Below, piece after piece: positions 26,915 through 64,000 of a stretch of DNA of 64,000 bases. Position 1 is the first letter of the stretch. The number at the start of each line of letters is the position of its first letter. The position numbers were made by a program, and so were the translations under genes. Where the stretch lies: the NCBI GenBank assembly GCA_963823665.1, contig CAWGMQ010000004.1:1024001-1088000 (forward strand). Direction: 5' to 3'. Origin of the DNA: an uncultured Planctomycetota bacterium. GTDB taxonomy: Bacteria; Planctomycetota; Planctomycetia; Isosphaerales; Isosphaeraceae. The notes beneath the pieces are model-generated. The model saw nothing but the letters and a program-made list of their open reading frames with translations. It was not told the origin of the DNA and did no database searches.

Positions 26915-29900
26915 ATGAGCGAGCACGTCTTGGTGGACGAGAGTTTGGTCGGCCGGCTACCCCTTCCCTTGGCCCAGCTTGCGCGGCGGGTCCCGAACGC
27001 GAAAACTGCACTGGAGCGACACCTCGCGGCTTACCTCCTCTGGGAAGCGGGGCTAAAGCTGCTGGCCTCTGTCGCCATCGTGGAATATGCCGAGCGCCAG
27101 GACCCCGACGCCGCGCTGGCCGAACGTCTGCAGCACCTGGCGCGGCCGTCGCTCGGCCACTGGTGGGAGTTCGCGCGGCGGCTCCTTCCGGTGCTGGCTG
27201 AAGGGGATGACGAGGGCTTCCGAGCAGTCCGGGACCTGCTGCTGGGACGTACCCGCGACGATCTGCCTCGCGCCGCCGGGCTGGACGCGGCATTACTGGG
27301 AGCACTTGGAGAACGCGGCACCGCGCGTAGCACGGTTCGTCTGACCGAATTGTTCGATCGGATGGTCAGCTACCGCAACCGCGAGCTTGGCCACGGCGCG
27401 GCTGGGCAGCGGGCACCGGATTTCTACGATCGCATGGCTCGTGCGCTCTTGGCCGGGGTGTCGGAGGTGTTTGATCGACTGGATGTTCTGGCCGGTCGCC
27501 AGCTCGTCTATGTCGATGACGTCCGCCGGCTCGCGTCAGGTGACTGGCTCGTCGACCGTTACGAGTTGATCGGCGAATCGGCGAGACGGATCGAGTCGAT
27601 AACGGTGCCGGACGCGCAGTCCGCCACGTTGCCGTGTCCGCACCGAGTCTACCTCGAGCACCGGGGCGGGGCGTCCAGCACGCGTCGCTCGCTCCATCCT
27701 CTCGTTTGCTACCAGCTCGAAACCGGAAAAGTTTTCTTCTTGAACGGCCGCCGCGGCAAGCAGCGCGCTGAGTACCTCTGCTACGACGACGGAGACTTGC
27801 TGCGCCTTGATCTCGGTGCGGACCACCGGTCGCTGCTCGCCGGCGTACTCGGCCGGCCAGTCGACAGCGAGCTCGCCGCCCGATGGGCGACCGAGAGTAC
27901 GGCGGAGGACCCGCCCGAGGACCTCCCGCGGGCTCCACTTACCGAACGCACAGTCGGCGAGTTCGAGCTGCTGAGCCGGCTCGGCCGAGGAGGGATGGGC
28001 GTCGTGTACCGCGCCTGGCAGCCCTCGCTTTGCCGGCAGGTGGCGATCAAGTGCATGCTCCGGAGCGGCGACCCCAAGGCCGAGGCCCGGTTCGCCCGCG
28101 AGATCAGGGCGCTGGGGCGGGTCGAGCACGCCAACCTCGTGAAAGTTTTTACGTCCGGCTCGGAGGGCGACCAGTGGTTCTATGCCATGGAGCTGGTTGA
28201 GGGCGCCGAGCTTTCCGGCATCTGCGAACAGCTCGCCGGTCGCGAAGCCTCGGCCGTCGACGAATCGACCTGGCGCGATGCCTTGTCGTCGGCCCACGCC
28301 AAGGCCCGCTCGGGCGAGACCCCCCTGAGCGACGAACGGCGCGGTGCTTCTTCCGCTCTCGCTGACGAACCGCCACCCGCCGATTCCCCAGGCGCCGCCT
28401 CGCTCAATCTGCCCGCTCCCGGCGGCCGAGGCTATGTCCGCCGCGTCGTCGAGATCGTCGAGCGGGTTGCCGACGCTGCCCACGCCCTGCACGAGGCGGG
28501 TGTCGTTCACCGTGACATCAAGCCCGGAAATGTGATGATCACGGCCGACGGGCACACGCCGGTACTCATGGACCTCGGGCTGGCGCAGGTCGCCGACGAG
28601 ACCGAGGGCCGGATCACGCGCACCCGCCAGTTCATCGGCACGCTCCGATATGCCAGCCCTGAACAGATCCTTGCTGCCGGACAGGTGGACCGCCGCTCGG
28701 ATGTCTACAGCCTGGGCGCGACGCTCTGGGAGCTGCTCACTTTGAGGCCGCTTTTTGGAGCGACCGACGAAACACCCAGCCCTAACCTCATGCTCGACAT
28801 CCAGTCGAAGACTCCTGAGAGTCTCCGGAAGTACAACCCCCAGGTGCCCCGTGACCTTGAAGCCTGCGTGCTCAAGTGCCTCGAGAAGGACCGCGGCCGC
28901 CGCTATGCGACCGCCGCCGATCTCGCGGCCGACCTGAACAGGTTCCTCCGCGGCGAGCCGGTCGCTGCGCAACCGCCGAGCCTCGGCTACCTGGCGACCA
29001 AGTTCGTCAAGCGTCACAAGCTGCCGCTGGCCTCTGCGGCGGCAGTCGTCTTCATGCTTGCAGCCGGCGGCGCGATCGCTTTCTACCGGATTAACGAGGA
29101 GCGGAAAGACGCATTACGCGCCCGCAACAGCGAGGCAAACGCCAGGATCGAGGCCCAGAACCGCGCCAGGGAATCGAGCGCGCTGGCCGTCAAGAATAAA
29201 GACCTGGCCGAGCAGGAAAGCAAGGCGCGGCAAAGCGCCGTTCATCAGCTTCGCCTCTCCCGGCTGACCGCCTATGACATGCAGCTCGACCGCGCCGGAA
29301 AACTCCTGACAACCGACCCGGCGGCCGCGGCCCGATTGCTCATCGACAATGAGCAGTGCCCCCCCGATCTTCGGGACTTCGCCTGGGGACGGCTGTTGTC
29401 GCTGGCCCGGTGCTCGACCTGGGTCATCCGCGCCGACGACTCCCCCGTCAATCGCGTCGCTTGTGCGCCCCACGGGTTTCTCTTTGCTTCCGCCGGCGCC
29501 GACGGGACCGTTCGCCTCTGGAGCCCCGCAGAATCTTTGCACAAAGCGACGAAGACCTTCTCAGGCCATGAAGGGGCCGTCTGGTCCGTCGCCATCTCGC
29601 CGGATGCCCGGACTGCCGCCTCTGCGGGTCGCGACGGCACTGTCCGCCTCTGGGATTTGATCAAGGGGCACGCCGGCGCCGTTCTGCGTGGTCACGTGGG
29701 GGACGTAGCCGACGTGGTGTTCAGCCCTGACGGCAAGTCCCTCGCATCGGGCGGGCGTGACGGCACCGTGCGCGTGTGGGACGTCAATCGCGGTGTGCCA
29801 GTTGTGACCTTGCGGAATGATGGGGCGCCGATCCTCGGCATCGCATTTTCCCCAGCCGGCGGGTCGCTGGCAGCCTCAGGAGCCGACCGGGTCGTTCGGA

Positions 29901-32900
29901 TCTGGGACGCCGTGCGCAGAATAACGGGCGCCCCCCCTCAACGAGGGGAGCCCGAGGCCGCCAGCGGAATCGACGGTGGATCTGGCGGAGACCGGCCAGG
30001 CCGACCGGCGGCCCAGGTCGTCCGCGACTGGAAGCTGGACGATACTCGTGAGCGGTTAACAATCGCGGTCGAGGGTGCGCCGGTCGGGCCGCTTGCGTTC
30101 GCGCCGGACGGCTTTTTCTTGGCTGGCGGGGGCGTCGACCACGTTGTCCGGGTCTGGGAGTCGAGGACTGGTCGCGAGGCCGCAAAGTTGTCCGGACACG
30201 ACGGGCCGGTGACCGCACTTGCGTTCGCGCCCGACGCGGTGACGCTCGCCTCCTCAGGCGCCAGCGGCATCAAGCTTTGGAATACGGAGGGATGGCGCGA
30301 GATTGCGGTTCTGCGATCTTCGTCCGGCGAGAATCCGACGGCGCTGGCGTTCTCTGGCGATGGCGGGACGCTTCTTGCCGGCCACCGATCGGGCGGGTTT
30401 TCACTCTGGGACATCCCCGAACGGCGAGAGTGGCCGGGGTTCAGAGGCCACAAGAAGGAATTTCGGCGGGCCGTCTTCTCGCCCAACGGCGCGCTCCTGG
30501 CCGCGGGCCAATCCGACGGCGGAATTCGGCTCTGGGACTGCACGACCGGCGCCCCGATTCGGTCACTGAACGGACACACGCTGGCCGTGAGCGGACTCGC
30601 ATTTTCACCCGACGGCAAGGCTCTCGCATCGGCGTCTTACGACGGCACAGTCAGGCTTTGGGACGTGGATTCCGGCCGAGAACGCGCTTCATTGGTGATC
30701 ATTCCCTCGACCGCGAATGGCGAATCCTCGGCGCTTGCGGTTGCGTTTGCGCCCAACGGCAAGACACTGTCGGTCGCGGGCCAGGATGCGAAGATCCACG
30801 TGTTCGACGTGGAGACCGGTCGGGAAAGGGTTGCATTTCCAAAGAACCCGGGGGAGCAAGCGACCACGAAGCCACCCGCAAGCGAGGCCGCGCAGCCGCC
30901 CACTCCGTTACCTGCTCTCCCGGGCACAAGTCCGGCCTCGGTGAAACCAACTGCGGACTCTGAAGAGACCTTACGGCCTGAACAATTGTCGTCAGACCAG
31001 TTGCTTGAACACTTCAGAAAGCGCCGAGATGAGTCCCGCGACAGCCGCGACGACGCCATCGGCATTCTTCGACGGTTGCAGAACGTGATTCGCTCCGCCG
31101 CGCGAGTTGACGAGAGGTACCGCAACACTCTCGCCACCATTATCGGGTCTGAAATCCTTAACACTCAACGCTTACTCGTGAGTCGATGTCTGGGTTATGC
31201 TCCCGACGGCGGCGCCCTTGCTTCGGCGGACGGCAGGGGATTCATTCGGGTTTGGGCGTCAACCGGCGAATTGCTCGCTCAAGTTGGGCGCCAGCCTCAC
31301 GCAGCCGATCGGTTGGAATACTCGCCCGACGGCCGGCTCATCGCCGTTGGTGGTGATGATGGGGCCATTGTCCTCTGGAACCCGTTGGGGACAGGCGAGC
31401 AATTCCGGCTTCCGGGACGCTCTGGAGTGCAACCTTGTTTTTCGTTTGCACCCGATGGGCAGGCTTTCGCGTACCAGGCCGCCGATTCAGTGCGGGTGAT
31501 TGACGTTCAAACCAGGAACATCCTGTCCGTATTCACTGATCTAAACTGGGTCCGGGACCTGGCATTCGCACCCGACGGAACAACTCTTGTGGGGACGAGT
31601 GCGGCCCGCATCTTGGCCTGGAACCTCAAGGCGTCAACCGGAGAATCCACGCTCGCCGGTCACGTGGACGATGTTCGGGCGGTCGCGGCGTCGCCCAACG
31701 GCTGGATTGCAAGCGGCGACATCCGCGGGCGCATTCTGCTGTGGAGCGATTCGGGAGGTCTTGGAGCCGAGCTGACCAGTGGGCCGGACCTGTCGGGCAG
31801 CGATTCCGCGAGGGATGGGGTCGCCGGTTTGACGTTCTCGCCCTCCGGAAGTCTCATCGCGTCGAAGACTGAAAAAGGTGTGATCACGGTTTGGGACGTC
31901 GTCACCGGGCGCGCGTGCGCCAGGCTCGGTACGCTTTCTGACGAGCGTCTGGCACGAAACGATAGCGGCGCTTACCTGCGAAAACCCGCGCAGAGCACCC
32001 TTGTGTTCTCAGCAGACAGCCGACTTTTTGCCGCGACGAGCGGGGCAGGTCGAGTCTCTGTCTGGGACACGGCGACCTGGCGAGAGGTTAGCCTGGTAGG
32101 ACCACAATCGCGTCCTTTAGCTCTGAGCTTCGGCGCGGGAGCCACGACGCTCGTGGGCGCGTACGAAACGGGAGAGATCAACCGCTGGGACATTCCATCG
32201 CGCGAGCGCGCCAAGCTCCCATCCGGCCGGCCGGCCGGCGTCGCGGTCATCTCGCCTGACGGGAAGACATTGGCCGCGGGCCGAGACTCGTACGACGACA
32301 CGGCGGACGCCGTAACAGGTGTGCCAGGCGCATCAAAAGAGCTTGCGCCCCTTTTTCGGTGCGCGACCTGGCAACTGGCCGCGTGCTCGCCGAGGTCAAG
32401 CGTGCCGGTTGGGGTGAAGACGCACAAGCTCTTGCTTTCTCACCCGACGGCCGGCGGATCGTCGCCGCCTTGTCGAGTGGCGCGGTGGCGGTCTGGGATG
32501 CCGCGAACGGGGAAAAGGTGCTGAACGTTTCGATCGACCCGTTGACCGGTCGTGTGAGCTCGGTTGCGTTCGCGCCGGATGGGTCCACGATCATCACGGC
32601 CGGCCCGCTCAGCTCGGTCTATCGATGGGACGCCGCAACTGGAGAACAGCGGAGAAGCCTGCAGGGGCATACCGCCGCGGTGACTGCCGTTGCGTTTGCC
32701 CCGGACGGCGCCACTCTGGCCACAGCGGGATACGACTGGACGGCGCGGCTCTGGGACACCGCGACCGGCAGCCACCTTGCCACGCTCGCTTCGCACAACG
32801 CTCCGATCCGGGCGGTCGCCTTTTCGCGCGACGGCCTGTCTCTGGCGACATGCGGCGACGACGACCGGGTTCTCTTGTGGGATACTTCAACCGGCCGCGG

Positions 32901-34758
32901 CCGCGGCTCACTTCCCCCTGCGACCGGCGAGGCCAGGCCCAAAACCCTGGCCTTCTCCCCCGACGGCAAGACTCTGGTGACTGGCGCCGCCGATGGGATG
33001 GTGCGTCTGTGGAACTCGGCAACCCTACAGCCGCTCACGGGGTTCAAGGGGCGAAGCGCGATCAATGCCGTGGCATTCAACCCCGACGGCAGCACCCTGT
33101 TTGCTGCCGAACCTCAAGGCTCCGTGCACGCGTGGTCGATTCCCTCAGGTGAGCCGGTTGCCGGCCCAGCCTGGCCCAACACCACGCCCCAAGCGATGGT
33201 TCTCGACCCCTCGGGCCGATCGCTTGCCGTCGCACTTGCGGACGCAACTGTCCGACTCTGGGACGTCGCCGGCCGCGCGGAGATGCACACGCTTCGTGGC
33301 CACTCCGGTGCCGTCCTCGCTCTGGCGTTTTCGCCCGACGGGAAGAGCCTCGCGACTGCCGCCGCCGACCGCACAGTTCGGATCTGGGATGCTCTAGCGG
33401 GCCAGCTCCGCGGAACGCTGGAAGGCCATTCCGCTGCCGTGCTTGGTGTCGCATTCTCGCCCGACGGCCGCACTCTCGCTTCGGTCGGCGCCGATCGTGT
33501 TGTCAAGCTCTGGCGAGGCGTGCCAGGCCCGCAGCCGGCGATGTCGCTCGAGCACTCCGCGGGGGTAAACGCAGTCGCATACGCCCCCGACGGCCAAACC
33601 GTCGCCTCGGCCGGCTCCGACAAAGGCGTCATGCTCTGGGAGATCGCCCGGTTCAAGCCGCACGGCCCGGAGAACCCGCTCGCCCGGTCGCTCATGAACC
33701 CCTCCCACCGCCGGCACCGCGACCTACTCGCTGAGCGGACACGCGACTCCCGTCGCATCCTCGAAAAGCTCGAAGAGCCGATCTCGATGTCGTTCGTCGA
33801 AGAAACCCCGCTCGAGGACATTCTCAGGTACATCACGCAGGCGACTACAACCCCGACCTACAGCGGTATCCCGATCTATGTCGATCCAGCCGGGCTGGAG
33901 GAGGCTGAGAAGACAATGGCTTCGGCGGTACGCCAACTAGACATTGAAGACAGCCCGTTGAAAAGAACGCTGCAGTTGCTCCTCAGTCAGCTCGGTCTGA
34001 CATACCGCGTTGCCGACGGCCGGCTGACGATCACGTCCCAGAATCGGGGCGAGAAGATGTTCGGAGCGACCATCGAGGCTCCACGTCAAAGCGTCAACCT
34101 CGATAACCCGAGAGCTCGCAGAGTCATTAGCGTTCTAGAGCAACCAATCGAGATGAAGTTCGGATCAGGAGTTTCGCTTGAGGATCTTCTCAAGTACATC
34201 AAAACGGCGACGATAACCCCGACCTACAGGGGTATCCCGATCTACGTCGATCCAATCGGTCTGCAGGAGGCGCAGAAGACGATGAGGTCAGAGATCAAAT
34301 ACGACGCAGAAGGGGTGCCACTTCGTCAGTCGCTCTACGAGATACTCAAGCAGCTTCGCATGAGATACGTCGTTGGCGAGGAATTCGTCACGATCACTTC
34401 GGAGGAATCGGAACCGAATCGGAGAATACTTTCGGCCAGCAGCACAAACTGGATCCTCGATCAGCCAATCGAGTTGTCTTTCGTTGAACCGACAGCCCTC
34501 GGGGACGTCATCGAGGTCATCCGGGCCGCAACGAAAGGTCCAGACAGCGACGGGCTGGGCATTCTTTATTTTGGAGAGGTCGGCTCGCAAACCACCAAGG
34601 GCAGCTATGAATCAAAAGGCAAACCTTTGCGCGAGTCGCTCAAGGAGATACTCACGCCGCTGGGGTTGAAATACGTGGTTGAGGGCGCGAGCGTGCTGAT
34701 CGTTTCCGAGGAACAGGCAGGAGTGGTCGGCGCCCGTGGCAATTCGACGCCCAAGTAA
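26915..34758 (+). CDS. giant membrane Ser/Thr kinase: HEPN-like N-domain, kinase, TM, many WD40 repeats, 3 STN-like domains (frameshift near 32350)
   Basis: GRGGMG, VAIK, HRDIKPGN, DLG, SPEQ; TM LASAAAVVFMLAAGGAIAFY; GH...WD repeats continue across the frame change at a C4T5 run. Confidence 0.9.
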
Positions 34759-46895: not shown

Positions 46896-49800
46896 TCACG
46901 GCCTCTTTTCGTCCTGAACGGCTTGAAGCTCGGTTTCGGGAACGACCCGGTCCTCCAACGTCGCCTGGAACAGTCCGGGAGCGATCCGGAAGGTTAGGAG
47001 CTTACCATTCCGGAGGATGATGAGCTCCTTCGGCTTTTCGGCAGGGCTTTGACGGCGTCTTGCGTCGATGAATCTGGACGCATTGATGACGTCCTTCTTG
47101 TCATACGTCATCAGGATGTCGCCTCCCTTCAACCCGATCCGCTCTCCCCGACCGCCCGGGTTGACCTCGGTGATAATCGCCCTGCACCGAACGGGCTTGC
47201 CTTCTTGATCGAAGTAGGTCGAATCTGTTCGATTGCCGTGGTCATCGTACATGTTGACGACCTTGGCGTAGCCATGCTTATGCCGCGCCGGCTTGCCTGC
47301 CTCGTCGAAGTAGGCTGTTTCGATCAGGTTGCCGCGGTCGTCGTACTCGTTGGCGACCTTGGCGCAGCCGTTCTTGCTACGCATGGGTTTGCCTGATTCG
47401 TCGAAGTAGGCCCTCTCGATCAGGTGGCCGCGAGCATTGTACTGGGAGGTGACCTTGGCATAGCCATCGTTGGTGCGCGCCGGCTTGCCCGATTCGTCAA
47501 GGTAGGCTTGCTCGACCACATTCCCTCGACCGTCGAGAGTTTGGGTGATGGCAGAGTAACCCCGAACGCCCGCTTCGTACCCAAAAATCGCCTGCCGGAC
47601 TTTTCGGCCCTTTTCATCATAGGCCATCGTCACCCGCGTGAACTCGTTTCTGAACCGCACCGGCTTGCCCGTTTCGTCGAAGTAGGCCTGCTCGATCTGG
47701 TGATCCTGGTGATCGTATTCGGCGGCGAACTTGGTGTAGCCGTCTTTGTGTCGAGTGGGGCGGCCAGCCGCGTCGAAGTATACTTCTTCGATCCGGTTAT
47801 CGCGGTCGTCGTACCGGATGGTGAACCTGGCGAAGCCGTCCTTGAGCTGCACCGGCTTGCCCGCTACGTCGAAGTAAGCTGTGTCGATGAAGTTGCCGCG
47901 GTCATCGTACTTGTTGGTGATCTTGGCGAAGCCGTCCTTGACCTGCACCGGCATGCCCGACTCGTCGAAGAACGACGTCTCCGTTCGGTTGCCGCGTGCG
48001 TCGTAGCTGGCAGTGGACTTGGCGAAGCCGCTGTCAGTCTCGACCGGCTTGCCCGACTCGTCGAAGTAGGCCTCCTGAATCCGGTTGCCGCGCTCGTCGT
48101 ACCGGAGGGTGAACTTGGCGTAGCCGCCCTTGATCTGGACCGGCTTGCCCGACTCGTCAAAGTAGGCTTCCTCGATCCGGTTGCCTTGGTCGTCATACTT
48201 GGCTGTGAATTTGGCGTAGCCGCCCTCGATCTGGACCGGCTTGCCCGCCTCGTCGAAGTAGGCCTCCTCGATCCGGTTGCCTCGGCCGTCAAACTTGGCT
48301 GTGAACTTGGCGTAGCCGCCCTTGATCTGGACCGGCTTGCCCGCCTCGTTGAAGTAGGCCTCCTCGATCCGGTTGCCTTGGTCGTCATACTTGGCTGTGA
48401 ACTTGGCGCAGCCGTCCTTGATCTGCAGCGGCTTGCCCGCCTCGTCGAAGTGGGCCTCCTCGATCCGGTTGCCACGGTCGTCATACTTGGCTGTGAGCTT
48501 TGCGTAGCCATTCTTGTGCCGAGTGGGCCGGCCTGATTCGTCGAAGTAGGCGGCCTCGTCCGCTTGACCACGCTCGTTGTACCTGGCGGTGAATTTGGCG
48601 TGGCCATCCTTGTGCCGAGTGGGCCGGCCTGATTCGTCGAAGTAGGCAGTCTGGTCCGCTTGACCACGCTCGTTGTACCTGGCGGTGGATTTGGCGTAGC
48701 CATCCTTGTGCCGAGCGGGCCGGCCGAATTTGTCAAAGTAGGCAAATTCGATGGCGTTGCCGCATTCATCGTACTGCGCGGTGACCTTGGCGTACCCGCC
48801 CTTGGTCAGCGTCGGTTGGCCGGCCCCATCGAAATACTTTTCCTCGACCAGGTGGCCACGGTCATCGTACCGGGCAGTGATCTTGGCATAGCCGTCTTTG
48901 TTCCGCGTAGCCTCGCCCGCGTCGTCCAGGTACGCCGTCTCGATCCGGTTGCCCCAGTCGTCGTACAGGATGGTGAGCTTGGCGTAGCCGTACTTGCTGC
49001 GAACCGGCTGGCCCGACTCATTCAAGTAGGCCTGTTCGATCAGGTTGCCAGCGTCATCGTACTTGGCGGTCAACCCGGCGAAGCCGTCCCTGCTCAGAAC
49101 CGGCTGGTCATGCGGCCCGAGAAACGTCATTCGCACCCACCAACCATGGGCATCAAATTCCTGATGCTTCCCGTAGATCCCGTCCCGATTCGGTCGACGA
49201 GCATTTCCATTGATATCATAGAATTTAATCTCTTTCGCGAGCCCCCGATCGGAGAGTTCGAATCTCACAAAGCTTGCCTCAGAGCCGGGTACGGCGAACG
49301 TCGATCCCCGCGCGTCGGTGAAATGAGCCGAATCTTCTGAAGTGTAGATAAATTTGAATACAATTCCTCCGGACCGATCCAGGGCTCTTTCCTCGGTCAA
49401 CTGACCTTTCTCGTCGAATCGGTAAATATACGAGCATTCACGCTTGGCCTGCGTCGCATCGTCCCGACTGCCGATATACGTGTCGACCGGGTGCCGCGTT
49501 GTCAACTGGCCGTGTCCGTTGACGACGTCGACCCGCTCCACGCGGCCAGCGCGACGATGAAACTGCAGGGTGTACTGACGGTGGTGGGCCTGTTCCGCGG
49601 TCAGGCGGCCGATCCCAACCGGAATACCCCAGCGTTTCTCAAAGTCCCGGTAGTACTCGATTCGCTCGCGATGAAAATCCCAGTAGGCAAAACCAGCCCC
49701 CAGGACCAGGGAGACGAGCAGGCAGCCCAGCGTCGCCATCGCCGCTGGCAACGGCCGTCGCCGTGCCCATCTCAGGGTGCGACCGAGCGAGCCGACCGGC

Positions 49801-51932
49801 CGCGCCTTGACCGGCTCGCCGACGAGGAAATGACGCAGATCGCCGGCCAGATCGGCGGCGGTGGCGTAGCGGTGGTCCGGTTTCTTTTCCAGGCACTTCG
49901 CGACGATCGCTTCCAGGTCCCGCGGGATCCCCGGGTGAAAAGTGCGCACCCGCTTGGGCTCTTCCAGGACAATCTGTCTCTGCAGCAGGTAGTCCGGCGT
50001 GGACTCCGACGCGCCGTAGAGAGCTCGAAGCGTCAGCAGCTCCCAGAGCACGGCTCCCAGACTATAGACGTCGGTGCGGCGATCGACCTTGGCGGAATCC
50101 AGGATCTGCTCCGGGCTCGAGTACCGCAATGTGCCGACAAACTTGGTGGTCAGGTTCGGTTTGTTCTGCTTGTCGAGCTCGTCGACGAGCTGGGCCAGGC
50201 CCAAGTCCATCAGAACCGCCTGCGTGCCGTCGGCCGTCACCACCACGTTGCCCGGCTTGATGTCGCGGTGAATCACGCCGGCCTGATGCAGCGCATGGGC
50301 CGCCTGGGCGACCTGGCGGACCAGCTCGGCGACCTCTTTGACGTAACCCTGCCGGGCAGGGGCTTGGGTCGGGACGGATGGATGCAGAGAGTCGGCACGC
50401 GACGGGGCCGGCCTGGTGGCGGTCGCCTGGTGATCGCTCAGGGACTGCTCCTCCTTCCGCGAATCCTCGCACGCCTTGCTCAGCGACTCTCGCCAAGTGC
50501 CCAGGTCGAGTCCGGCCGCGCTCGCGCTGCGGGAGTGGAGCGCCCGGCAGAGGGCGGCCAGCGTCGCCCCTTCGGCCAACTCCATCGCGTAGAACCACTG
50601 GTCTCCGTCCACGCCCGAAGTGAAGACCTTGACCACGCTCGGGTGCTCGACCTTGCCCAGAGCGTGGATCTCACGGTCGAACCGCGCCTCGGCCTTGGGG
50701 TCGCCGACTCGGAGCAGGCACTTCAGCGCCACCTGCCGGCCCAAGGACGGCTGCCAGGCTCGATAGACCTTCCCCATGCCCCCGCGGCCCAAGACGCTGA
50801 GCAACTCGAACTCGCCCAGCCGGCGCGGCGGCGGCTCATCCGTGTTCGGGGACGGCGATCCCTGCGGCTCTCCAGCCACCGACTGGTCGGCCCACGCCGC
50901 GACCTGGTCGCTGGCGATAGCGCAGCCCAGAACCCGCGCCAGCAGCGCGCGGTGTTCGGCGCCCAGGTCCGGGCGATCGATTATCGCGCCCGAGATGTAT
51001 CCCAGGTATTCGATTCTTGACCGGCCGCGCCGCGCGTTCAGGAAGAACATCTCCTCCTTGGCGGGATCATATTTCACCATTGGGTGAACGGACCGCAGCG
51101 CCAGAACGTCGGGGCGAGCGGGGAGGCTGGATTTCCCGGGATCCTCGGGTGGTGGGGGATCCTCCACGGAATCGCGGAGAACCGGTGCGTCGAGGTAGAC
51201 ACGCTTGGGCAGCGGCAGTAGGTGAGCCTCCCGCTCGGGCCGCTCAACGGGTTTCAGGGAACGTGGGGCCTCTCCGGTCAGGGCGAGTCGTTCGATGACC
51301 CACGCTCCATCCTCGGCGCGCTCGACAGCCGACACGTACACAAGGCGATACCCTGCCAGCACGTCCAGATGCCCGAGCAACTCGCCCACTCCGGCGAGGA
51401 TCGCTCTACCCATCTGCTCGTCCGACTCCGACGGTCTTACTCCCATGACACCATGGCCGGTCGTCTTGTTTCGGTATTGCACCAATCGCTCGAACAAATC
51501 GCTGACGCGGACTGTACTGTGGGCACCCGCTGCGCCGCCCAGGAATTCGCGCAAGGCCGCATCGAGTGCGGCAGCCCGTGGCAGGTTGCTCCGTGAGCTG
51601 CCCAGGACCAGGTCGCGGACCGCTCGGAACGGCTCGTCGCCGGCGTCGGCGAGGGCAGGGACAAGCAGCCGAACGTACTCCCACCAGTTTCCCAGGGCGG
51701 GACGCGCCAGGCTCGTGAGCCGTTCGGTCAAGACCGGATCGTGCTCGCTTCGCTCGGCATAGGCCACGATCGCCACCGAGCCCAGTAGCTTGAGGGACGC
51801 TTCCCAGAGGTAGTAGGCCACCAGGACTCGCTCGAGCGGCGTCTTGGCATCGTGGGCGCGGCGATGAAGCTGCGCCAGCGGCAACGGGAGGCGCCGGACC
51901 AGTTCTTCATCGGGAGTCAGGTAGCCACTCAT
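46896..51932 (-). CDS. membrane Ser/Thr kinase: HEPN-like N-domain, kinase, TM, ~21 YD-type repeats, PDZ
   Basis: GRGGMG, VALK, HRDIKPGN, DLG, SPEQ; TM ATLGCLLVSLVLGAGFAYW; PDZ-like VNPGGRGERIGLKGGDILMTYD. Confidence 0.92.
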   Translation of the reverse strand: MSGYLTPDEELVRRLPLPLAQLHRRAHDAKTPLERVLVAYYLWEASLKLLGSVAIVAYAERSEHDPVLTERLTSLARPALGNWWEYVRLLVPALADAGDEPFRAVRDLVLGSSRSNLPRAAALDAALREFLGGAAGAHSTVRVSDLFERLVQYRNKTTGHGVMGVRPSESDEQMGRAILAGVGELLGHLDVLAGYRLVYVSAVERAEDGAWVIERLALTGEAPRSLKPVERPEREAHLLPLPKRVYLDAPVLRDSVEDPPPPEDPGKSSLPARPDVLALRSVHPMVKYDPAKEEMFFLNARRGRSRIEYLGYISGAIIDRPDLGAEHRALLARVLGCAIASDQVAAWADQSVAGEPQGSPSPNTDEPPPRRLGEFELLSVLGRGGMGKVYRAWQPSLGRQVALKCLLRVGDPKAEARFDREIHALGKVEHPSVVKVFTSGVDGDQWFYAMELAEGATLAALCRALHSRSASAAGLDLGTWRESLSKACEDSRKEEQSLSDHQATATRPAPSRADSLHPSVPTQAPARQGYVKEVAELVRQVAQAAHALHQAGVIHRDIKPGNVVVTADGTQAVLMDLGLAQLVDELDKQNKPNLTTKFVGTLRYSSPEQILDSAKVDRRTDVYSLGAVLWELLTLRALYGASESTPDYLLQRQIVLEEPKRVRTFHPGIPRDLEAIVAKCLEKKPDHRYATAADLAGDLRHFLVGEPVKARPVGSLGRTLRWARRRPLPAAMATLGCLLVSLVLGAGFAYWDFHRERIEYYRDFEKRWGIPVGIGRLTAEQAHHRQYTLQFHRRAGRVERVDVVNGHGQLTTRHPVDTYIGSRDDATQAKRECSYIYRFDEKGQLTEERALDRSGGIVFKFIYTSEDSAHFTDARGSTFAVPGSEASFVRFELSDRGLAKEIKFYDINGNARRPNRDGIYGKHQEFDAHGWWVRMTFLGPHDQPVLSRDGFAGLTAKYDDAGNLIEQAYLNESGQPVRSKYGYAKLTILYDDWGNRIETAYLDDAGEATRNKDGYAKITARYDDRGHLVEEKYFDGAGQPTLTKGGYAKVTAQYDECGNAIEFAYFDKFGRPARHKDGYAKSTARYNERGQADQTAYFDESGRPTRHKDGHAKFTARYNERGQADEAAYFDESGRPTRHKNGYAKLTAKYDDRGNRIEEAHFDEAGKPLQIKDGCAKFTAKYDDQGNRIEEAYFNEAGKPVQIKGGYAKFTAKFDGRGNRIEEAYFDEAGKPVQIEGGYAKFTAKYDDQGNRIEEAYFDESGKPVQIKGGYAKFTLRYDERGNRIQEAYFDESGKPVETDSGFAKSTASYDARGNRTETSFFDESGMPVQVKDGFAKITNKYDDRGNFIDTAYFDVAGKPVQLKDGFARFTIRYDDRDNRIEEVYFDAAGRPTRHKDGYTKFAAEYDHQDHQIEQAYFDETGKPVRFRNEFTRVTMAYDEKGRKVRQAIFGYEAGVRGYSAITQTLDGRGNVVEQAYLDESGKPARTNDGYAKVTSQYNARGHLIERAYFDESGKPMRSKNGCAKVANEYDDRGNLIETAYFDEAGKPARHKHGYAKVVNMYDDHGNRTDSTYFDQEGKPVRCRAIITEVNPGGRGERIGLKGGDILMTYDKKDVINASRFIDARRRQSPAEKPKELIILRNGKLLTFRIAPGLFQATLEDRVVPETELQAVQDEKRP
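47187..49185 (-). repeat. ~21 x 96-bp coding repeat (32 aa, GYAKxTxxYDxxGNxIExAYFDExGKP)
   Basis: Counted in the translation; 96-bp period visible, e.g. 48205 and 48301. Confidence 0.93.
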
Positions 51933-54742: not shown

Positions 54743-56134
54743 TCACAGCTCGATGCGGTAGTCGATCCAGTCTGGGGTGACGTCGGTTCGCGCGAGGAAG
54801 CTGTCCCACTCGCGAGCGTTCGACTGGTCGTCGGGCCTGGGCGGTAGTCCGGTCTCCAGGTCGAGAAGTCGGCCGGCGGTTTTCTCGTGGAGGCGGCGGT
54901 AGAGTGTCGGGAAGGGCATGTTCCAGTCCATCTTCTTGGCGGTTGTCCGGTCTACGGGCAACATGGCTGCGAGCTCGCGGCTGGTCATTAGCTCGAGGCC
55001 CAGCTCGCGGAGGGTGGCGTTGTGGCTGCCGTGATGGCCGACCTTGTAGAGCACGGTCCGGGCGAGCAGATCCTCGGCCGTCACCCTGCGCGATCCGGAT
55101 CCGGTCTTCAGGTTCCACTCCCTTCCAGCCCAGCTCATCCAGTTGCCCACCTGGGCATCGCCGGGGAACAGGAGCACGCGGCGGGAGGGCTCGAGCTCGA
55201 ACGCGAGTGCGAGGCTGGTGTTATTTGTGTTCGAGTCGAGCTGGAGCGCCAGCCGGCCGGCTGGTCCGAGCCAGTCGCTCTCGATGCGGCGCCACCCCTG
55301 GTCGTCCTCTCCCTCAAACCCATAGTGTTCACCGAAGAAGTCGTCGTCCCACGCCTCCGCGTCGGAGATCCGGAACCATTTGTCGAACGGCATTCCGGCG
55401 GTGTCTCCTTCATCGGGGGATGAGTCGAGGGCCGCGAGGAACCCCAGGTCTTCACCGCTCATCCCGGCGAGCTCGTAGACCTCGCTCGACCGCGTGCTCG
55501 GGTCGCTTCTCCGGAGCAGCTTGACGTCGCGCGGGGGACCGAGCACGTATACCCGCACGTCATCCACGCCGGGAATGGTCACTGGATCGCAGCCGGGCGT
55601 GAAGTAGCGCAGGCGGGCGTTCTCACGCGCTTTCACCCACTCGATCGCCTTGGCGGTCGTCGCGGGGCCGCTGGCGCCCATCTCGCCCTGGAACGCGAGC
55701 AGGCCGTTCAGAGACGCGAGGTTGTGCTGCGCACTCGCCTCGGCGAGGCCCGAGAGTCTGGTGACGGCATTTTCGACGGCGGCGACGGCCTTCCGCCGGC
55801 GATGGGCTAATTCAGAGGCCAGGTCGTCTCCAGGATCCTCGGTCCAGGCGAGCCAGACCTCGCCCACGGCCAGCCGGTTGAAGATGTCTTCGGCCTGGAG
55901 GAACCCGGAGACATGGTCCCAATGCTGGTGAGTGACGACCAGGGCGTCGAGCCGTCCGCCGGTTGTTGTGAGGATCGATTCGGCCACGCGTCTGATGCGG
56001 GCCGTGGCGTCTCCCGTGCCTTTGAGCACGCCGCAGTCGATCAGCACGTGGGACTCGCCGGCCGGCCGGGGGAACGAAAGGAGGAAGCAATCCCCGAGCC
56101 CCTGGCGGTACATCCGCACCCGAACGGTTTTCAT
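54743..56134 (-). CDS. metallo-beta-lactamase fold hydrolase (ComEC-like class)
   Basis: GLGDCFLL, IDCG, THQHWDH, NNTSL, FPGDAQ and YKVGHHGSHNAT. Confidence 0.9.
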   Translation of the reverse strand: MKTVRVRMYRQGLGDCFLLSFPRPAGESHVLIDCGVLKGTGDATARIRRVAESILTTTGGRLDALVVTHQHWDHVSGFLQAEDIFNRLAVGEVWLAWTEDPGDDLASELAHRRRKAVAAVENAVTRLSGLAEASAQHNLASLNGLLAFQGEMGASGPATTAKAIEWVKARENARLRYFTPGCDPVTIPGVDDVRVYVLGPPRDVKLLRRSDPSTRSSEVYELAGMSGEDLGFLAALDSSPDEGDTAGMPFDKWFRISDAEAWDDDFFGEHYGFEGEDDQGWRRIESDWLGPAGRLALQLDSNTNNTSLALAFELEPSRRVLLFPGDAQVGNWMSWAGREWNLKTGSGSRRVTAEDLLARTVLYKVGHHGSHNATLRELGLELMTSRELAAMLPVDRTTAKKMDWNMPFPTLYRRLHEKTAGRLLDLETGLPPRPDDQSNAREWDSFLARTDVTPDWIDYRIEL

Positions 56135-56156
56135 GCGAATTGCTCCATGCGGCCCC

Positions 56157-59100
56157 TCACAGTCGATGCAGCATTGCGAATGGCTCACTGCGCTGCCGGC
56201 CCACACCGCCGAAGTATGTGGCGGCCAGGTTTTCGTTGCCGTCTTCCAGCAAGTACCGGCGCTGGCGCTCTCGCCGGGCGTCGTCGAGTTTCTTTCGGAT
56301 GCTGTACCGAACCTTCCCGGTCTCTGCGTCCACCACCAGGGTGCATCCGCCGCGGAACCAGAATTCGGCCTCGCCGTCCGGAACTATCCAACCTTCCGGA
56401 TCGGTGATCTTTCCGTCGCGCTGGGTCAGCTCGATTACCCATTGAAACCGCGGCCGGCCTTCCCAGTCGCTGCGGAAGGATGGTCGAATGGAATGCACCT
56501 CAACCGGCAACTCAAAGTTGATTCCACTGATGCCGCACCCGTGCTTCTTCAGTCGCGCTTGCAAGTAGCTATGCAGGGCGGCGCGTTTACTTTTCATGAG
56601 CTTATAGAGCTTCTCTCGGCCCCTGGTCAGGCTCCACGAGGCGATGTCGGGGGCCCATTTCTGGACCTCGCTCAGCACCGCGTTCTCATCTTCATCCGGG
56701 GCGTCGGCGCTGCCGCGCCACAGCAGCCCGTCGACGGAGACGGTGCGCACGCCCTCCGGCACGATCCCATGCCGGCGAAACGCCTCGACGAATGCCACCC
56801 GACAATTCGTTTCATCCACCGGGTCGAATTCATAGTCGGCGGTCACGATTGCCCGCAGATAGTCGCCGAAGGTCAGGTCAACCGGCGGGCAGTAATCCAG
56901 CGCGCGGAAGCACATGTTGAGCACGTGCCCGGCCGATCGCGCGGCCTCGTCGGCCAGGCGGTTCACCAGATCGGGATGGAGATGGCCCGCCGGCAGAACT
57001 CCGGTTCCATCGGTGGCGATCCGGAGCAGGTCGGCCACCGCCGCCTTAAAAATCGTCAGGAACGCGTCGAATACGGCAGCCACGAGCAGGCGCCTCGATC
57101 ATGGGGTTCTTTGAGACGGCGGTAGGCGTCGGGATCGGGCTTGGCCCGTTCCCACTGGCCGGTCAACCGATTGACCGCGCCCAGGGCGCTTCGCAGCGCC
57201 CCGCGATTGCCCGTGGCCTGACCGAACTGCTGCGCCAGCTCACCCAGTTGGTTCTGGCTCTCGAGGTCGCCGCGGGTGCGGGCCACCTGGTGCCGCAGAA
57301 CATCGGGCAGCGAAAAGTGCTGGAACAGAGCCACGATGTCGGCAAACGCTTCGTGGAAGGCGAGCACGTCGGGATTGCTGGGCTCGTTGAACCGGCGGTG
57401 CATGCCGTCGAGCAGCGCATGGGTTGTCTCGTGCGCGATGATGTCGTGGGACAGGCACGTGAAGACGATCATCGCGTCCTCGCGCGCCCGGCCCGGGAAT
57501 CCCGGATCGGGAAAGTATCCGAAGAGGAGGGCCTTCTTGACGGGGCTGTAGTAGGCGTTAGCCTCTCGCAGCGCGTGCGGGTAAACCCTCAACCGCTGGA
57601 CGTATTGTTCGCTCTTCCAGTTGTCGCCGGTCTCGTCCAGACGCACCGCCGGCCGCGGCGACCAGAGGGCGAGCCGGCCAAGCGCCCGCTCGAACGTGCG
57701 AATCGTGCGCATCGCAACGGCGTAGACCATCTGCTGGTGAAACTGCGGGTTCGATTCGGACGGCGCCAGTCCTTGCTGAGCCAAGAGCCGCGGGTCATCG
57801 AGGTCGATCGGGGCATAGAAGGCCTTGCTTGCGGGATCACGGTCCACGATCTCGAGGTACTCGCCCACCGGGCCGGGCCCGAGCGCATCGCCGCCGGAAG
57901 AGGTGCGCTCCCAGGGTACCCGCAGCACGACCTCGTTGATCACGGCGGTCTCGGATGCGATTCCCATGGTTGGATCGAACGCGAACGTGCGGAGCCGCCG
58001 CTCAAGAGCGGCGGCGGCAGCGCCACCGCTGGGAGCGGACAGCAGGGTCCCGGCAAGGGCCGCGGCGTCCCCGTCGGAGGGCCGCGCGGGACGGCGCTTG
58101 TCGATCTGGTAGCGGACCATTCCCGAATCGGCCTCGACCAGCAACGTGCAACCGATCTGGTTGGAGCCCGGCGACTGGTTCGGGGGGGTGGGCGGCTGGA
58201 GCAGCTTGATGACCCACTGCGACTGGAGCGCGCCCGGCTCACCGGCCCGCTGGCGCGGATGGATCGCTTGCACCTCGAACGGTTTGCGGAGGTCGATCGC
58301 GCCGAGCCGGCGCGGGACCTTGAGTCTGCTCAAGTACTCGTGCAGATCGATCTTCGTCTCCTCGAGCACATACCAGAGCTCACTTCGCTCCGGGGGCAGG
58401 TTCCAGTACGCGAGTCGCTTCGAGAGTTTCTGCACGAAGGGCACGAGCGCCAGGGCGACCTCGTCGCTCTCGGGTCCCGGCCAGAGCAGCGTGCGCGCCG
58501 AGACGGTTCCGACCTCCTGAGGAGAAATCCCGTACTCGCGAAACGCTTGCATGAAAGCCTGGCGGTGGCATGCCGGGTCTTGGGGGTTCACGTCATGATC
58601 GGCGGTGATCACCGCCCTCAAGAAGTCGCCGAAGGTCACGCCCACGGGCGGCATGTAATCGAGAGCGCGAATGCACATATCCAGCACGACGCCTGCCAAC
58701 CGCGAGACCTCGTGCACGAGCCGGTTCACCAGGTCGGGATGCAGGCTTCCCGCGGGCAGCTCGCCGGTTCCCCGACTGGCGATCCGCCGGAGGTCAGCAA
58801 CCTGAGATTCGTACATCTTGCGGAGTGCCTCGAACACAGCGGCGACGAGCAAGTCGCCGCGCGCGTGGGGCTCCTGCTCGGTGCGGGCCGCTTTCGGGTC
58901 CGGCCGCCGCGGCTGCCAGGTTTCGCCCTCCGTCTTGCCGAAGGCATTCCGGAGGCCGTCCGGATTACCCAGGGCTTGCCCGAACTGAAGGGCGACGGCC
59001 CCGAGTGGGCCCGGCTCGTTAAGCACTCCGCGTGCCCTCGCGATCTCGGCCCGCAGAATGTCACACTCCCAGAAGTGCAGGAAGAGCGCGACCAGATCGG

Positions 59101-60093
59101 CGAACGCCTCGTGGAATGCCAGCTCGTCGGGATCACCCGCCTGGTTCACGTCGTAGTCAACGATCGACGTCACCAGTGCGAGAATCTCGGCGGTCTCTGA
59201 ATCGGTCGGGTTCGGCGGCTGCGTCAAGCGTGCCAGCTTCCGCTTGAGAGCGGCGATCGCCGGCGCTTGCTTTTTGAGGCGCCGCTCGTCCGTGTTGACT
59301 GCGACTTTGCCACCCGCGTCGAAGATGCGGAAGCAGAGCGTGCGATTCACGCGTGCTACCACGATCAGATTCGTGCCCTTGCTCGGAAGTGCGCTTCGGT
59401 TGCGCACCGAGCCAAGCCACTTCAGGTCGTACCACGCCGTACGGAACCGGTAGTTCATGCCCCAGAGCACCGCGTGCATCATCTCGTGGGTGATGACGTC
59501 CTGCGATAAGCAAGAGTAAACATGCGTGCCGTCAAACAGCGTTCCGGCGAGGCCGATGAAATGACCGAAGCGGATGGCGGCGGTTCCGATCGAGTAATAG
59601 GCGTTCGGCTCCGGCATGAAGTGGGGATGAAGCTTGAGCTGCGCTTCGTACTTCACGTTGCGCGGCTTGCCGTTGGCCGGCGCTGCGCCCAGTGGACGGG
59701 CCGGCCCAGAGCACGCTCAAAGATACGAATCGTGCGCATGGCGACCGCGTAGACCATCTGCTGATGAAACTGCGGATCGCCATCCGATGGGCTCTTGCCG
59801 TCGTGGGCCAGCAACTCGCGCCGATTCAGGTCCACCGGGTCGTACAATTGCGTGCCGTGTTCGTCGATATCCTGAACCGACACGTATTCGCCCGAGGGGC
59901 CGGGCTCGAGTTTCTCCCAGGGAATGTCGAGCGTTGCCTCGTTGACGACCGCCGTCTCGAAACGGGCCGTCAAGCCGGGGTCGAGGGCGAAGACTCGAAG
60001 CTTGCGGAAGACGGGGTCTGGGATCCTCTGCCGCGCCGGCTTCGCCGCGGGAAAATTGGATTCGTGGTCTGCTGGTTGAGAACGAGGGGGCAT
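56157..60093 (-). CDS. tandemly duplicated M4-like (gluzincin) metallopeptidase, frameshifts near 59660 and 57090
   Basis: Two copies of LRxFAxDP / PGPxGEY / QFHQQMVYAVAM / NAYYS / HExxH...HEAFAD / EPHxRG / TFGDxLRA; start uncertain. Confidence 0.85.
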
Positions 60094-60220
60094 CGGTGCG
60101 GCGCTCGTGATTGAGTTGGGCGAATCCAGGAGCGGTGATTCCCGCTGGGGGGGGACTGTCACCCGCGTGGCGCAGTCGGCTGCACACTCGACTTCCGAAT
60201 GGGTCAGAGGCACTTCCTGA

Positions 60221-60426
60221 AGTTGACGTTAAGCGCGCCGCGGAGCGGCACGACGGACGTTCCCACGCAGAGCGTGGGAACGAGGGGCACAATTGGCGTT
60301 AAGCGCGCCGCGGAGCGGCACAGCGGACGTTCCCACGCAGAGCGTGGGAACGAGGGGCACAATTGACGTTAAGCGCGCCGCGGAGCGGCACAGCGGACGT
60401 TCCCACGCAGAGCGTGGGAACGAGGG
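60221..60426. repeat. 3 x 70-bp tandem REP-like repeat
   Basis: Each unit holds the hairpin GTTCCCACGC-AGA-GCGTGGGAAC; units are nearly identical. Confidence 0.95.
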
Positions 60427-60472
60427 TTTTACGGCTTGAACTGAGATCGGGACGTTAATCCCGGTCTGTTTT

Positions 60473-60802
60473 TCAGTCGTCGATCGTGATGTGCAGGGTC
60501 GTGGTTCTGCGGCTGTGGAACGGGTCGCCCGTGAACAACTCGAGCGTTGCCTGCCCCGGCCCGCGAGCCCGCACAAGCACCGCGTTGGGAGAACCCATCG
60601 GGGCGAGAACAGCCCCGTTGGAGCCGACCACGGCCGATACGAAGGGACCGAAGATCTCCAGAGCCGATTCGCCGTCACTGATCCGGGCCCCCGTTGCCTG
60701 AAACACGAGCACGTCGCCCACGCGAACCGCCAGCGGCGCCCTTAAGTGGTCCGTTTGCTGCACCTCGATCAATCGGGCCATCGGGGCGGTACTCCGTTTC
60801 AT
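60473..60802 (-). CDS. small beta-sandwich protein (chagasin-like pattern)
   Basis: 109 aa; AVRVGDVLVF, VRARGPGQATLEL, LHITI; starts 45 bp after the M12 peptidase stop. Confidence 0.6.
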   Translation of the reverse strand: MKRSTAPMARLIEVQQTDHLRAPLAVRVGDVLVFQATGARISDGESALEIFGPFVSAVVGSNGAVLAPMGSPNAVLVRARGPGQATLELFTGDPFHSRRTTTLHITIDD

Positions 60803-60847
60803 TCCGCTCGCCGGATCGCGACGGCATGGCCTGGGTGAATCGTCGGC

Positions 60848-61798
60848 TCAAACGTCCTCCGATGGATCCCAATCTCCGGTCGAATTACCGGTGGGGATAG
60901 CGGCAGCACCAGCCGTGGCCCCGGCCCTGGGATAAATCCGGCCGGCAAAGGCGAAGTCGGTGGGGTTGATGTCGGTTCCCCCGATGATCGGCTTGCCGTC
61001 CTTGGTAATCGTTGCCGGCAACTGGTAGCACATGATCGAGGTCTGGTCTTCGGGCGTTCCCATGATCGATGCGTCGTCGAGCGGGGTGAGCACCTGGGCG
61101 TCGACTTCGGCCTTGTCCCAACCCTGGTCGGCAAGAAAGTACGGGTAGGCTTTCTTGGGATCGATGCGGGCGATCAGGCCTTTGCGCATGTGCTCGTGGG
61201 GGAAACCCAGGGTGTGCCCGGTCTCGTGGCGAACCACGCGCCGGTATTCCGATTCCGGGGTGCTCATGGAAAAATCCTGCAAGTTCATGGTCGGCCGGTT
61301 CTTGGGAATCATCTGGACGTCCGTGCCGAGATACGACCAGTAACCGCTGCCCTCGAACGAGATCCGCACATCGCCGGTCCCACCGGTCTCGACGAACGAG
61401 ATGCATGCGGTTTGCGTCCACGCGTTCATGTGCTGGAGAATCCGGCTCCGCAAGTCAGCCTGAGTGCTTTCCATGAAGCTGACCGAGAGCGTACGGGGAG
61501 TCGGGCCCCAGTATTTTGCAGTCAGGACGGCGATCTGCATCGGCTCCATCACCCCCATGCCCATCCCGCGTGCGACCGGGGCACGCATCGGCGCGTTCAC
61601 CGGGTTGATCCGCATCGCATGGGTCGCCGCCTTCACCAGCAACCGCTTGGGAAGCGACTTGACCGAGCAGCCGGGAACATCCGCGGGCGCGGTGTAGGCA
61701 CTCTCGACCGTCGTGGCTGTCCCCAGCTTCCTACTCAGATCAGTGAATACATCGGCGATCTTCGCGAACGCCTCTTTCAACTCCTCGATCTCGGTCAT
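60848..61798 (-). CDS. astacin-like (M12) zinc metallopeptidase
   Basis: WSYLG, HETGHTLGFPHEH (HExxHxxGxxH) and Met-turn SIMCY; no obvious signal peptide. Confidence 0.9.
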   Translation of the reverse strand: MTEIEELKEAFAKIADVFTDLSRKLGTATTVESAYTAPADVPGCSVKSLPKRLLVKAATHAMRINPVNAPMRAPVARGMGMGVMEPMQIAVLTAKYWGPTPRTLSVSFMESTQADLRSRILQHMNAWTQTACISFVETGGTGDVRISFEGSGYWSYLGTDVQMIPKNRPTMNLQDFSMSTPESEYRRVVRHETGHTLGFPHEHMRKGLIARIDPKKAYPYFLADQGWDKAEVDAQVLTPLDDASIMGTPEDQTSIMCYQLPATITKDGKPIIGGTDINPTDFAFAGRIYPRAGATAGAAAIPTGNSTGDWDPSEDV

Positions 61799-61974: not shown

Positions 61975-64000
61975 CTACGGGAGAATCTGGCTGGCGATTG
62001 CACGGTCGGTGATCGACAGGTCGTCCGCAAGCATCAGGGCCTTGCTCAGAATGACCGAGAGACGCGTGTCGCCTTCGAAGGGGAGGAACACTGCGCTGTC
62101 AGGCTTGGCTTGCTGCGCGGGGACGATGCAGAGATACCTGTTATCAGGATCCATCATGATGTTGCCGCTGCCGAGATGAATCCGGTAGGTGCGCAACTGG
62201 CCGCGAACTACCAGAAATCGGTCGCTGATCGTGCAGCGATCCGCGATCTTCGACTGCGGTACGATGCGCTCGAGCGCGGCCCTGCGGGAGAGGGCCGTTT
62301 CGGAAAGCTCGCCGAAGGCATAGTCGTGCCAGTACTGGGCATGTCGGCCCTCGGGGCCGCCGTCAGCCCAGGTGGGATCGTTGCCGACGCCAGCGACACC
62401 CACAAACAGGTCAACGTCGCGCATGACCTCGGAGAAGACGAGCGGCGGCACCTGGTCCAGTGGCAGCGGGTCGCGCGAGCCCATCGGGCAGAATCGAACT
62501 TGATCGGTCGAGAGATATGTGAAGCCGCCCGCGTGTGCGTATTCGTCGCCGGCGCCATGCGTCCAGAGTTCCGCGCGGAGAGCCCAGTCCGGTAGCTCGC
62601 GCTCGGCGAATTCGTCGTCGACTGAGCTCCAGTGCCCGAGGTACCTGGTTTTCCACCGGCGTGTCTTCGCGAGGGCGCGAAACTGACTTTGTCTGAGGAT
62701 GTGAGCAGCAAAGCGGTTGGAGTAGGTTGCCGAGGAGCGTTCCGCGTCGGTCAGCAGGTAGACCTCGCGATGTGCTTGTTTGAACGGCTGGGTCACGTTG
62801 CTGTCTGCAAGAAGTTGCCGCCAGTGCAGCACATCAGCGACGGGCGAGCCGAGGGGATGCCAGACCGAGACGCGAGCTGCATCGGACAACGCGAGCGGAC
62901 GGCCTTCGTTATTCACGAGCGAACGGCCATCAAAAGCGCCGATGGTCACGGCGCCCTCGTGATCGAACGCCCACAGGATTCTCCGGCCGATTGTGCCGGC
63001 TACCGGATGGTCGAAGTATTTGTGCCGCCAGTCAGCCACACTCCATGATCGCCGTTCGAGCGGCGCGAACTCGAGCTGCTGCCGCACGGTTGCCAGCGTG
63101 CTTTCCACTTCCTTCACGGCCGCTTTCAGGCTCCGAAGTTCGGCTTCATGGGCACGCTTGACCTACGCCGGAATGCTCTTCTGCTCTTCGCCGCTCGGTT
63201 TGAACCAGCGAAGGTCGATGGCTCCGGAAGCCGTCACGACGAGCTCGGCCTTGAAGCTGGAGAGCACTTCGACGCGTCTGCCGATCTCGCTGAAGCTCGA
63301 CGTCGGGAGGGGCACATCACTCCGCGCCTCGAGCGGCACGCCAGCGCGGCCTGCAACGACCGCCCGGGCCGCCTCGATCAGCTCTTTCTGGATCTCGGCT
63401 TTCACCTGGTTTTGTAGAAACGCCAGCTCTTCCAGAGCGGTTGGGGCAGGTATCCGTGCGAGAACCCAGACGGCGAATCGACCGAGCGGGGAATTGTTTC
63501 GAAAGAAGAATTCGGCGGCGATACGCACGGCGCGGGCCAGCTCCGCATCGCTCGAATGCTCGTAGGTACATAGTATCCCGCGCAGGATTTCCCGGTTGAC
63601 GGAGAACTGCGATAGCGTGCTCGGCTTCGAATCGGGAACGGCGAGGAGCCATTTGAGGCGCAGCGATTGAAACGGCTCGGCTCCGATCGCCGCGATCTGC
63701 TCGCTGCTCGCCCGGGACCAGGCGTCCGACGCGCTTCGCAGGAAAAAGAGCCGCAAGCGCTCCCGGTGAAATGCCTCGAGATCCGGGATGTCGAGCTGGA
63801 TTTCGCCTGATTCGATATCCCAGTCGGTGGCGGGCGGTTCCGGTAAGGCCGCGCTCGCGTGGCTCAGAAACGCATTCCATTTCTGACGATCCGCATCGTT
63901 CATGCGGGCGAGGTCCTGCGACATCAAATCAGCCCAGCCGTCGTCGGGTTTCAGCCGCGCGGCGACCGAGTCGCTTGAGAGCCGGCTGATAGGATGATTC
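61975..64000 (-). CDS. DUF4132-type protein, partial, with an in-frame TAG at 63163-63165
   Basis: GEEQKSIPA*VKR, HPVAG..GRRILW, WHPL, QPFKQAHREVY, VFSEVMRDVDL; the two ORF-track pieces share a frame and it stays open to the window edge. Confidence 0.8.

Follow-up and report, generated by a model that had tools for sequence, protein, structure and literature searches.

The four genes between positions 54743 and 61798 of the analysed stretch of planctomycete DNA (64,000 nucleotides, hereafter the window) contain a conserved unit of two genes, a horizontally mobile pair in which a zinc peptidase gene is followed by the gene of an MBL-fold hydrolase. By analogy with the trypsin-MBL and Canu systems, this pair is likely a metalloprotease-activated MBL nuclease defence module and a variant of these known systems. 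The original prediction envisaged a protease-activated MBL nuclease driven by zinc metallopeptidases, and the peptidase-MBL half of this idea is supported by the linkage of the two genes, their co-inheritance in gene trees, the ComEC fold and two insertions of the hydrolase, the catalytic motifs and genomic settings of the defence-island type, whereas the astacin and small genes do not hold up as parts of the conserved unit.

The linkage between peptidase and MBL, for which a neighbourhood analysis of MBL homologues had been proposed, is conserved when approached from either gene; a lack of conservation had been named in the original prediction as refuting it, and the outcome thus favours the prediction. 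A scan of GTDB genomes yields at least 579 stretches encoding a relative of the peptidase, and among the best 80 of these, which were kept as loci, an MBL homologue lies directly 3′ of the peptidase in 78, from 12 named phyla; in the two loci without MBL the contigs end within 1.2 kb of the peptidase match. The peptidase query matches 67 plasmid records, and in all 35 of the records matched by the MBL, from which plasmid linkage was counted and many of which are related rhizobial plasmids, the peptidase lies within about 1.6 kb upstream of the MBL. The MBL is distributed patchily in the planctomycete sample (11 of 301 genomes) and has the peptidase directly upstream in 11/11 planctomycete loci, comprising 10 other genomes and a second copy in the source genome. 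Within a set of 61 related genomes the same eight have both genes, and two more have short peptidase matches only. Distances in the peptidase and MBL trees are correlated (rho 0.79, 64 loci with both genes whole), with none of 999 within-phylum permutations reaching as high a value, and the two trees have 33 of 61 splits in common, 12 of which are cross-phylum. Taken together, the trees show that peptidase and MBL have been transferred jointly, an outcome that adjacency alone could also produce. The four-gene cascade fares differently as a conserved unit, as the astacin and small gene accompany the pair in only 2 of these best 80 of at least 579 stretches (L013 and L055; at least 3.5 kb of upstream sequence is present in 57 of the 80) and also occur unlinked. 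MBL homologues up to an E of 1e-30 fall into at least 1,890 clusters when grouped at 50% identity. Apparent peptidase-MBL gene fusions suggested by a separate clustering are shadow ORFs, with no real fusion among them. The second copy of the pair in the source genome (G000:C5:1518839-1522509; L115:8840-12510) is distant, at about 30% identity.

In the window all four genes are on the minus strand, co-oriented as described in the original prediction, in the order astacin-family (M12A) zinc peptidase (61798-60848, 316 aa), small gene (60802/60781-60473, 102 aa from the ATG at 60781, no known family), double gluzincin peptidase (60213/60093-56157, about 1,310 aa when read through, with two HExxH units) and ComEC-like MBL-fold hydrolase (56134-54743, 463 aa). 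The tight junctions noted earlier are present between astacin and small gene and between peptidase and MBL, but not in the middle, where a gap of 259-379 bp holds a repeat array. The outer distances are as claimed: 22 bp separate peptidase and MBL, and 45 bp separate astacin and small gene if the latter starts at 60802, or 66 bp with the ATG at 60781, which is favoured because most of the 38 homologues of the small protein are 101-102 aa long. The earlier remark that no signal peptide is evident agrees with a crude hydropathy scan, in which none of the four genes has a signal-like start (0.85-1.87), the reference being the neighbouring VIT gene, whose start is signal-like and scores 2.14, a positive control missed at a cut-off of 2.2. 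A GGAG stretch lies 5′ of the astacin gene, and promoter and terminator scans of the locus give results at chance level. The flanks of the pair in the window are ordinary (VIT-vWA, kinase, ECF sigma, DUF4132 and efflux genes) and do not form a defence island.

The double peptidase appears in the window as three ORFs of 186, 866 and 308 aa through two one-base frameshifts, near 59678 and 57089. Each frameshift is spanned by one short-read contig (two soil runs, depth 3-3.5) that has one extra base and is otherwise identical, and a database protein of 1,299 aa matches all three pieces co-linearly at 85-86% identity. With intact double peptidases also found at loci L013-L016, L018 and L019, the breaks are most likely assembly errors; a pseudogene reading is rejected in view of the extra-base contigs and the co-linear relative. 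Read through, both units retain the HExxH and third-ligand motif (HExxH...E), and the architecture is that of two tandem M36/M4-fold units, each with a C-terminal domain of about 190 aa. The zinc site, of HExxH-x21-HEAFAD type, is intact in 70 of 73 aligned peptidase units.

The peptidase is predicted to have a thermolysin-type (M36/M4-like) fold while lying outside the M4 and M36 sequence profiles. As the gene is broken in the window, the model was built for its orthologue at locus L013, from unit 2 (pLDDT 87). The model matches the M36 fungalysin 7qp3 with Z 20.2 (rmsd 4.1, 321 residues aligned, 11% identity) and M4 enzymes with lower values of Z 15.2-15.8; the match spans residues 1-427, the C-terminal 190 or so residues being barely covered by the fold search. 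Alignment to mature M4/M36 enzymes begins at residue 1-4, so that no propeptide is present. In a Pfam scan of the window pieces and two intact units neither the M4 nor the M36 profile is matched, PDB sequence searches with the peptidase return nothing significant, and Foldseek returns no match at E up to 0.001. Of the "double M4-like peptidase" first described, the duplication and the HExxH motifs thus stand and the assignment to family M4 does not, given the lack of a Pfam match and the best fold match to M36. The fungalysin and thermolysin gluzincins share with this peptidase the predicted fold and a zinc site of HExxH plus downstream Glu; unlike them, it matches no Pfam profile, has no signal or propeptide, carries an extra C-terminal domain, and is tandemly duplicated with an obligate MBL neighbour.

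The identity of the MBL hydrolase is borne out by its PF00753 match, its modelled fold and its intact metal ligands (H69, H71, D73, H74, N305, D326, H367 and H368), each of which is conserved in 100% (rounded) of 148 diverse homologues. The model (pLDDT 87) is best matched by the beta-lactamase-like domain of ComEC (9ic4; Z 24.3, rmsd 2.9, 255 of 266 residues) and next by the phosphorylcholine esterase Pce (Z 20.4), and with Pce as the next match the fold does not fix DNA as the substrate. About 200 residues without a counterpart in ComEC lie in two insertions, at about residues 98-176 and 202-303, which are present in 148/148 homologues with lengths of 66-118 and 88-185 aa, respectively. Compared by eye with the published table, they come after the two core motifs that also precede the gating insertions of PflHamM. 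Matches to the PADLOC/NCBIfam profiles LmuA, Avs1a and 6A-MBL are confined to the N-terminal core, those to LmuA and Avs1a to the first 80-95 residues; the LmuA match is restricted to residues 3-95, and the NCBIfam profiles score far below cut-off, with 40 bits against 420 for the Avs1a equivalog NF041809. A homologue with 32% identity over 81% of the query is found in an unannotated 9.5-kb record from a phage collection (MT836994.1:3078-4091).

The acidic region within the MBL (SSPDEGDT...EGEDDQG) had been proposed as an auto-inhibitory cleavage segment, a role disfavoured by the poor conservation of the named residues among the 148 homologues and by low confidence in the model. Residues 237-243 and 273-277 agree with the window MBL in 0-34% of homologues, and a D/E content of at least 25% is reached by segment 220-249 in only 9% and by segment 250-281 in only 17%; such low identity and acidity exclude the segment as a conserved gate. 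Other positions of this second insertion, namely P249-F250, Y271, W281-R282, I284, W288 and A296-L297, are conserved in 88-99% of homologues. As thermolysin-type enzymes cleave before hydrophobic residues, conserved hydrophobic motifs are better cut candidates than the acidic stretch, and the best candidate sites are those around W281-L289 and L145-G150. By a count made by eye, the NxxS motif follows I284 at a distance of 20 residues, a spacing close to that of the mapped cut of HamM at I218 (23).

Comparison with known systems draws on the accessible portions of two reports, in which MBL DNases are activated by trypsin and caspase encoded by an adjacent gene (PMC12799240; bioRxiv 2025.09.03.673762). 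One of the closest layouts is that of the caspase-nuclease system Canu (KaeCanABC; Tuck et al. 2025, PMC12799240), in which, as described in the available text, a stand-alone protease gene likewise precedes that of a ComEC-like MBL bearing two insertions, the accessory genes vary and the settings are those of defence islands. In Canu, however, the activating protease is a caspase, whereas here it would be an HExxH gluzincin of predicted M36/M4 fold, and no CanB-like gene is conserved. The trypsin-MBL modules of HamMAB, Avs1a/b, Lamassu and DRT systems resemble the pair in their ComEC-like MBL, insertions after the same core motifs and a co-evolving adjacent protease (PMC12799240; bioRxiv 10.1101/2025.09.03.673762), but in the portions available the MBL gene is typically upstream, the reverse of the order here, and trypsin domain and sensor (helicase partner, STAND or SMC) share one protein, whereas no sensor is conserved with the pair. 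The four genes and the scanned flanking genes contain no STAND or trypsin domain that would place them in Avs1, and no SMC ATPase that would place them in the Lamassu hydrolase-protease type. The literature searched, in the form available, describes no metallopeptidase-MBL system, and the unnamed further protease families in Fig. 4A and fig. S2 of Tuck et al. may include this clade.

On this analogy the pair would act as a cytoplasmic two-gene defence module consisting of a peptidase and a gated MBL. The MBL insertions would block the active site; on infection, the presumed trigger, the peptidase would cut these inserted loops, and the cut MBL, presumably a DNase, would kill or arrest the infected cell. 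That the peptidase cleaves the MBL insertions and thereby frees a DNase, as trypsin and caspase partners do, is on balance the probable reading. No sensor gene is conserved with the pair, and sensing may therefore reside in the C-terminal domain of the peptidase or in variable additions such as the duplicated unit, the S8 fusion or the astacin.

The astacin is the expected enzyme, with a PF01400 match of 42.1 bits (cut-off 22.5; E 1e-10), an HExxHxxGxxH motif at residue 191 and a Met-turn at 254, both invariant in 68 aligned sequences. Its usual partner is the small protein, possibly its inhibitor. The small gene adjoins an astacin at L013, L055, L095, L098, L099 and L102; of 11 metagenome loci, several too short to tell, 4 have the two side by side, as do the two plasmid records that carry the small gene, both of them Paraburkholderia replicons. 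The small protein is not found in 400 planctomycete genomes by single-sequence or profile search, one of the searches having scored 12 candidates per genome. Its earlier description as Ig-like finds no significant Pfam or PDB match, the weak matches being the ICP structure 2c34 (E 1.6) and Big_2 (E 0.084, in 1 of 35 members); it may resemble chagasin/ICP-like or other inhibitors of Ig fold. A further analogy is the protealysin-emfourin operon (available part of PMC9505478), in which an intracellular zinc metalloprotease of a family other than astacin is likewise co-encoded with a small protein. The astacin and small protein are likely a separate module of a peptidase plus a regulator or inhibitor, which in some planctomycetes is docked upstream of the peptidase-MBL pair. 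Related astacins elsewhere precede caspase and trypsin genes. In a second copy in the source genome (L114:8430-12347) and on a microbial-mat contig (L100:442-4257), an astacin fused to a CHAT domain precedes a GDSL-type hydrolase gene, possibly as another protease-effector module.

A clade-specific cascade would bring these genes back into a single pathway, with the astacin, checked by the small protein, activating the double peptidase and the latter then activating the MBL, and with S8 peptidases or the duplicated unit serving likewise elsewhere. Consistent with it, the window, G401 and L013 all have the astacin immediately 5′ of the double peptidase, and L097 has one directly behind a related MBL; 5 of the best 80 loci of at least 579 stretches (L042, L043, L045, L061 and L066) encode the peptidase with an S8 peptidase at its N-terminus whose D/H/S motifs are intact, an S8 subtilase is fused to the C-terminus of the MBL in protein P0237, and unit 1 has lost its catalytic Glu at L015 and L016. 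The rarity of the astacin beside the pair implies, however, that most pairs work without it; the same-genus genome G401 (83% DNA identity) has astacin, peptidase and MBL at the same site but neither small gene nor repeat, one Paraburkholderia replicon carries astacin and small gene 635 kb from its peptidase-MBL pair, and in the window a hairpin array stands between the two gene pairs. This cascade is accordingly rated unlikely.

Two other readings concern the MBL itself. Its fold similarity to Pce, together with the co-oriented patatin gene next to the pair at 16 of the best 80 loci (of at least 579) and the PLD, DUF2235 and S1/P1 genes beside some pairs, would suit a protease-regulated or independent phosphoesterase acting on something other than DNA (lipid head groups or nucleotides) alongside patatin- or PLD-type enzymes in a hydrolytic or conflict cassette. 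This appears improbable, with ComEC 4 Z units above Pce, 64 of the 80 loci free of patatin, and the protease-partnered MBLs tested in the available part of one report being DNases that are inactive on choline substrates (bioRxiv 2025.09.03.673762). The relation between the two proteins could also be the reverse, as in toxin-antitoxin systems, with the peptidase destroying or holding the MBL until, in an infected cell, the peptidase is lost or inhibited and the nuclease set free. A peptidase with neither propeptide nor sensor might be constitutively active, and among close homologues neither gene is found alone where the contig permitted a check; yet the two conserved insertions fit self-inhibition of the MBL, and the protease is the activator in all protease-MBL pairs tested in the accessible portions of the two reports (PMC12799240; bioRxiv 2025.09.03.673762), making such inverted control distinctly improbable.

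Activation of a gated DNase by the peptidase is thus the preferred reading, and a broader version of it is offered tentatively: the pair may represent a large and so far undescribed class of bacterial immune modules. In these, a zinc protease of fungalysin/thermolysin fold that lacks a propeptide would activate the DNase, and interchangeable upstream proteases (astacin with its small inhibitor, a fused subtilisin, a duplicated or inactive unit) would make up a cytoplasmic metalloprotease cascade together with co-effectors such as patatin. In the accessible literature, all proteases tested so far as partners of gated MBL nucleases are trypsin-like or caspases, and if the reading is true, zinc metallopeptidases would be a third catalytic class of MBL-nuclease activator, in a large family (at least 579 GTDB stretches). 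The unit is easily tested, being compact, at two genes, and offering clear mutants as well as candidate sites of cleavage, and it raises the question of how a thermolysin-fold protease without propeptide or fused sensor stays off in the cytoplasm.

The settings of the pair are variable. The peptidase unit is duplicated in 6 of the best 80 loci of at least 579 stretches; this duplication, the patatin gene (16) and the S8 fusion (5) are all commoner additions than astacin plus small gene (2). All eight plasmid regions opened, which were hand-picked and have no control set, contain defence-type or mobile genes within 10 kb, including DUF1837 with a helicase, SIR2, restriction and PD-(D/E)XK nucleases, MoxR-MBL, ThiF/JAB, integrases and transposases. 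At L013, the closest four-gene relative among the loci examined, the genes are located after VMAP-C, AAA and EAD1 genes, which the available part of Kaur et al. (PMC7159879) lists among the Pfam families of ternary conflict systems. The patatins of the 16 loci (among L013-L092) all have a DGG motif, and 14 of the 16 lack a strict GxSxG by regular expression.

Two repeated elements interrupt the locus in the window. The array at 60223-60426, which separates the small gene from the peptidase, consists of 2.9 tandem copies of a 70-bp repeat (TRF score 387) with a palindromic core and is a dispersed REP-like element; exact matches to the core number 10 across the genome, three here and seven as single copies elsewhere, compared with none for a control pattern, and the repeat folds with a z of -7.2 against shuffles. 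The second element, an in-frame insert of about 100 aa (59123-59446, minus strand), falls within peptidase unit 1, after its HExxH and ahead of its third zinc ligand. The domain is also present in proteins of unrelated kinds; it has no Pfam match, recurs in six further copies in ORFs of the source genome (G000 C2, C3, C8 and C10), one of them an AcrB-type transporter, and in genome G414 (C24, L150) lies inside the second insertion of the MBL, between profile positions 275 and 277. It looks like a mobile protein-coding insert of the source planctomycete family.

Elsewhere in the window, the DUF4132/DUF7737 gene (61975-63999, minus strand) and a kinase-WD40 gene (26915-34755, plus strand) are apparently split across frames, which fits further one-base assembly errors in both. 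A Ser/Thr kinase of 1,678 aa (46896-51932, minus strand) carries an extended region of YD/RHS-like repeats as well as a PDZ-like domain at its C-terminus, and its N-terminal stretch is similar to that of the kinase at 26915. A gene of the peptidase A4/G1 family (PF01828, E 6e-38) lies at 9606-10691 on the minus strand.
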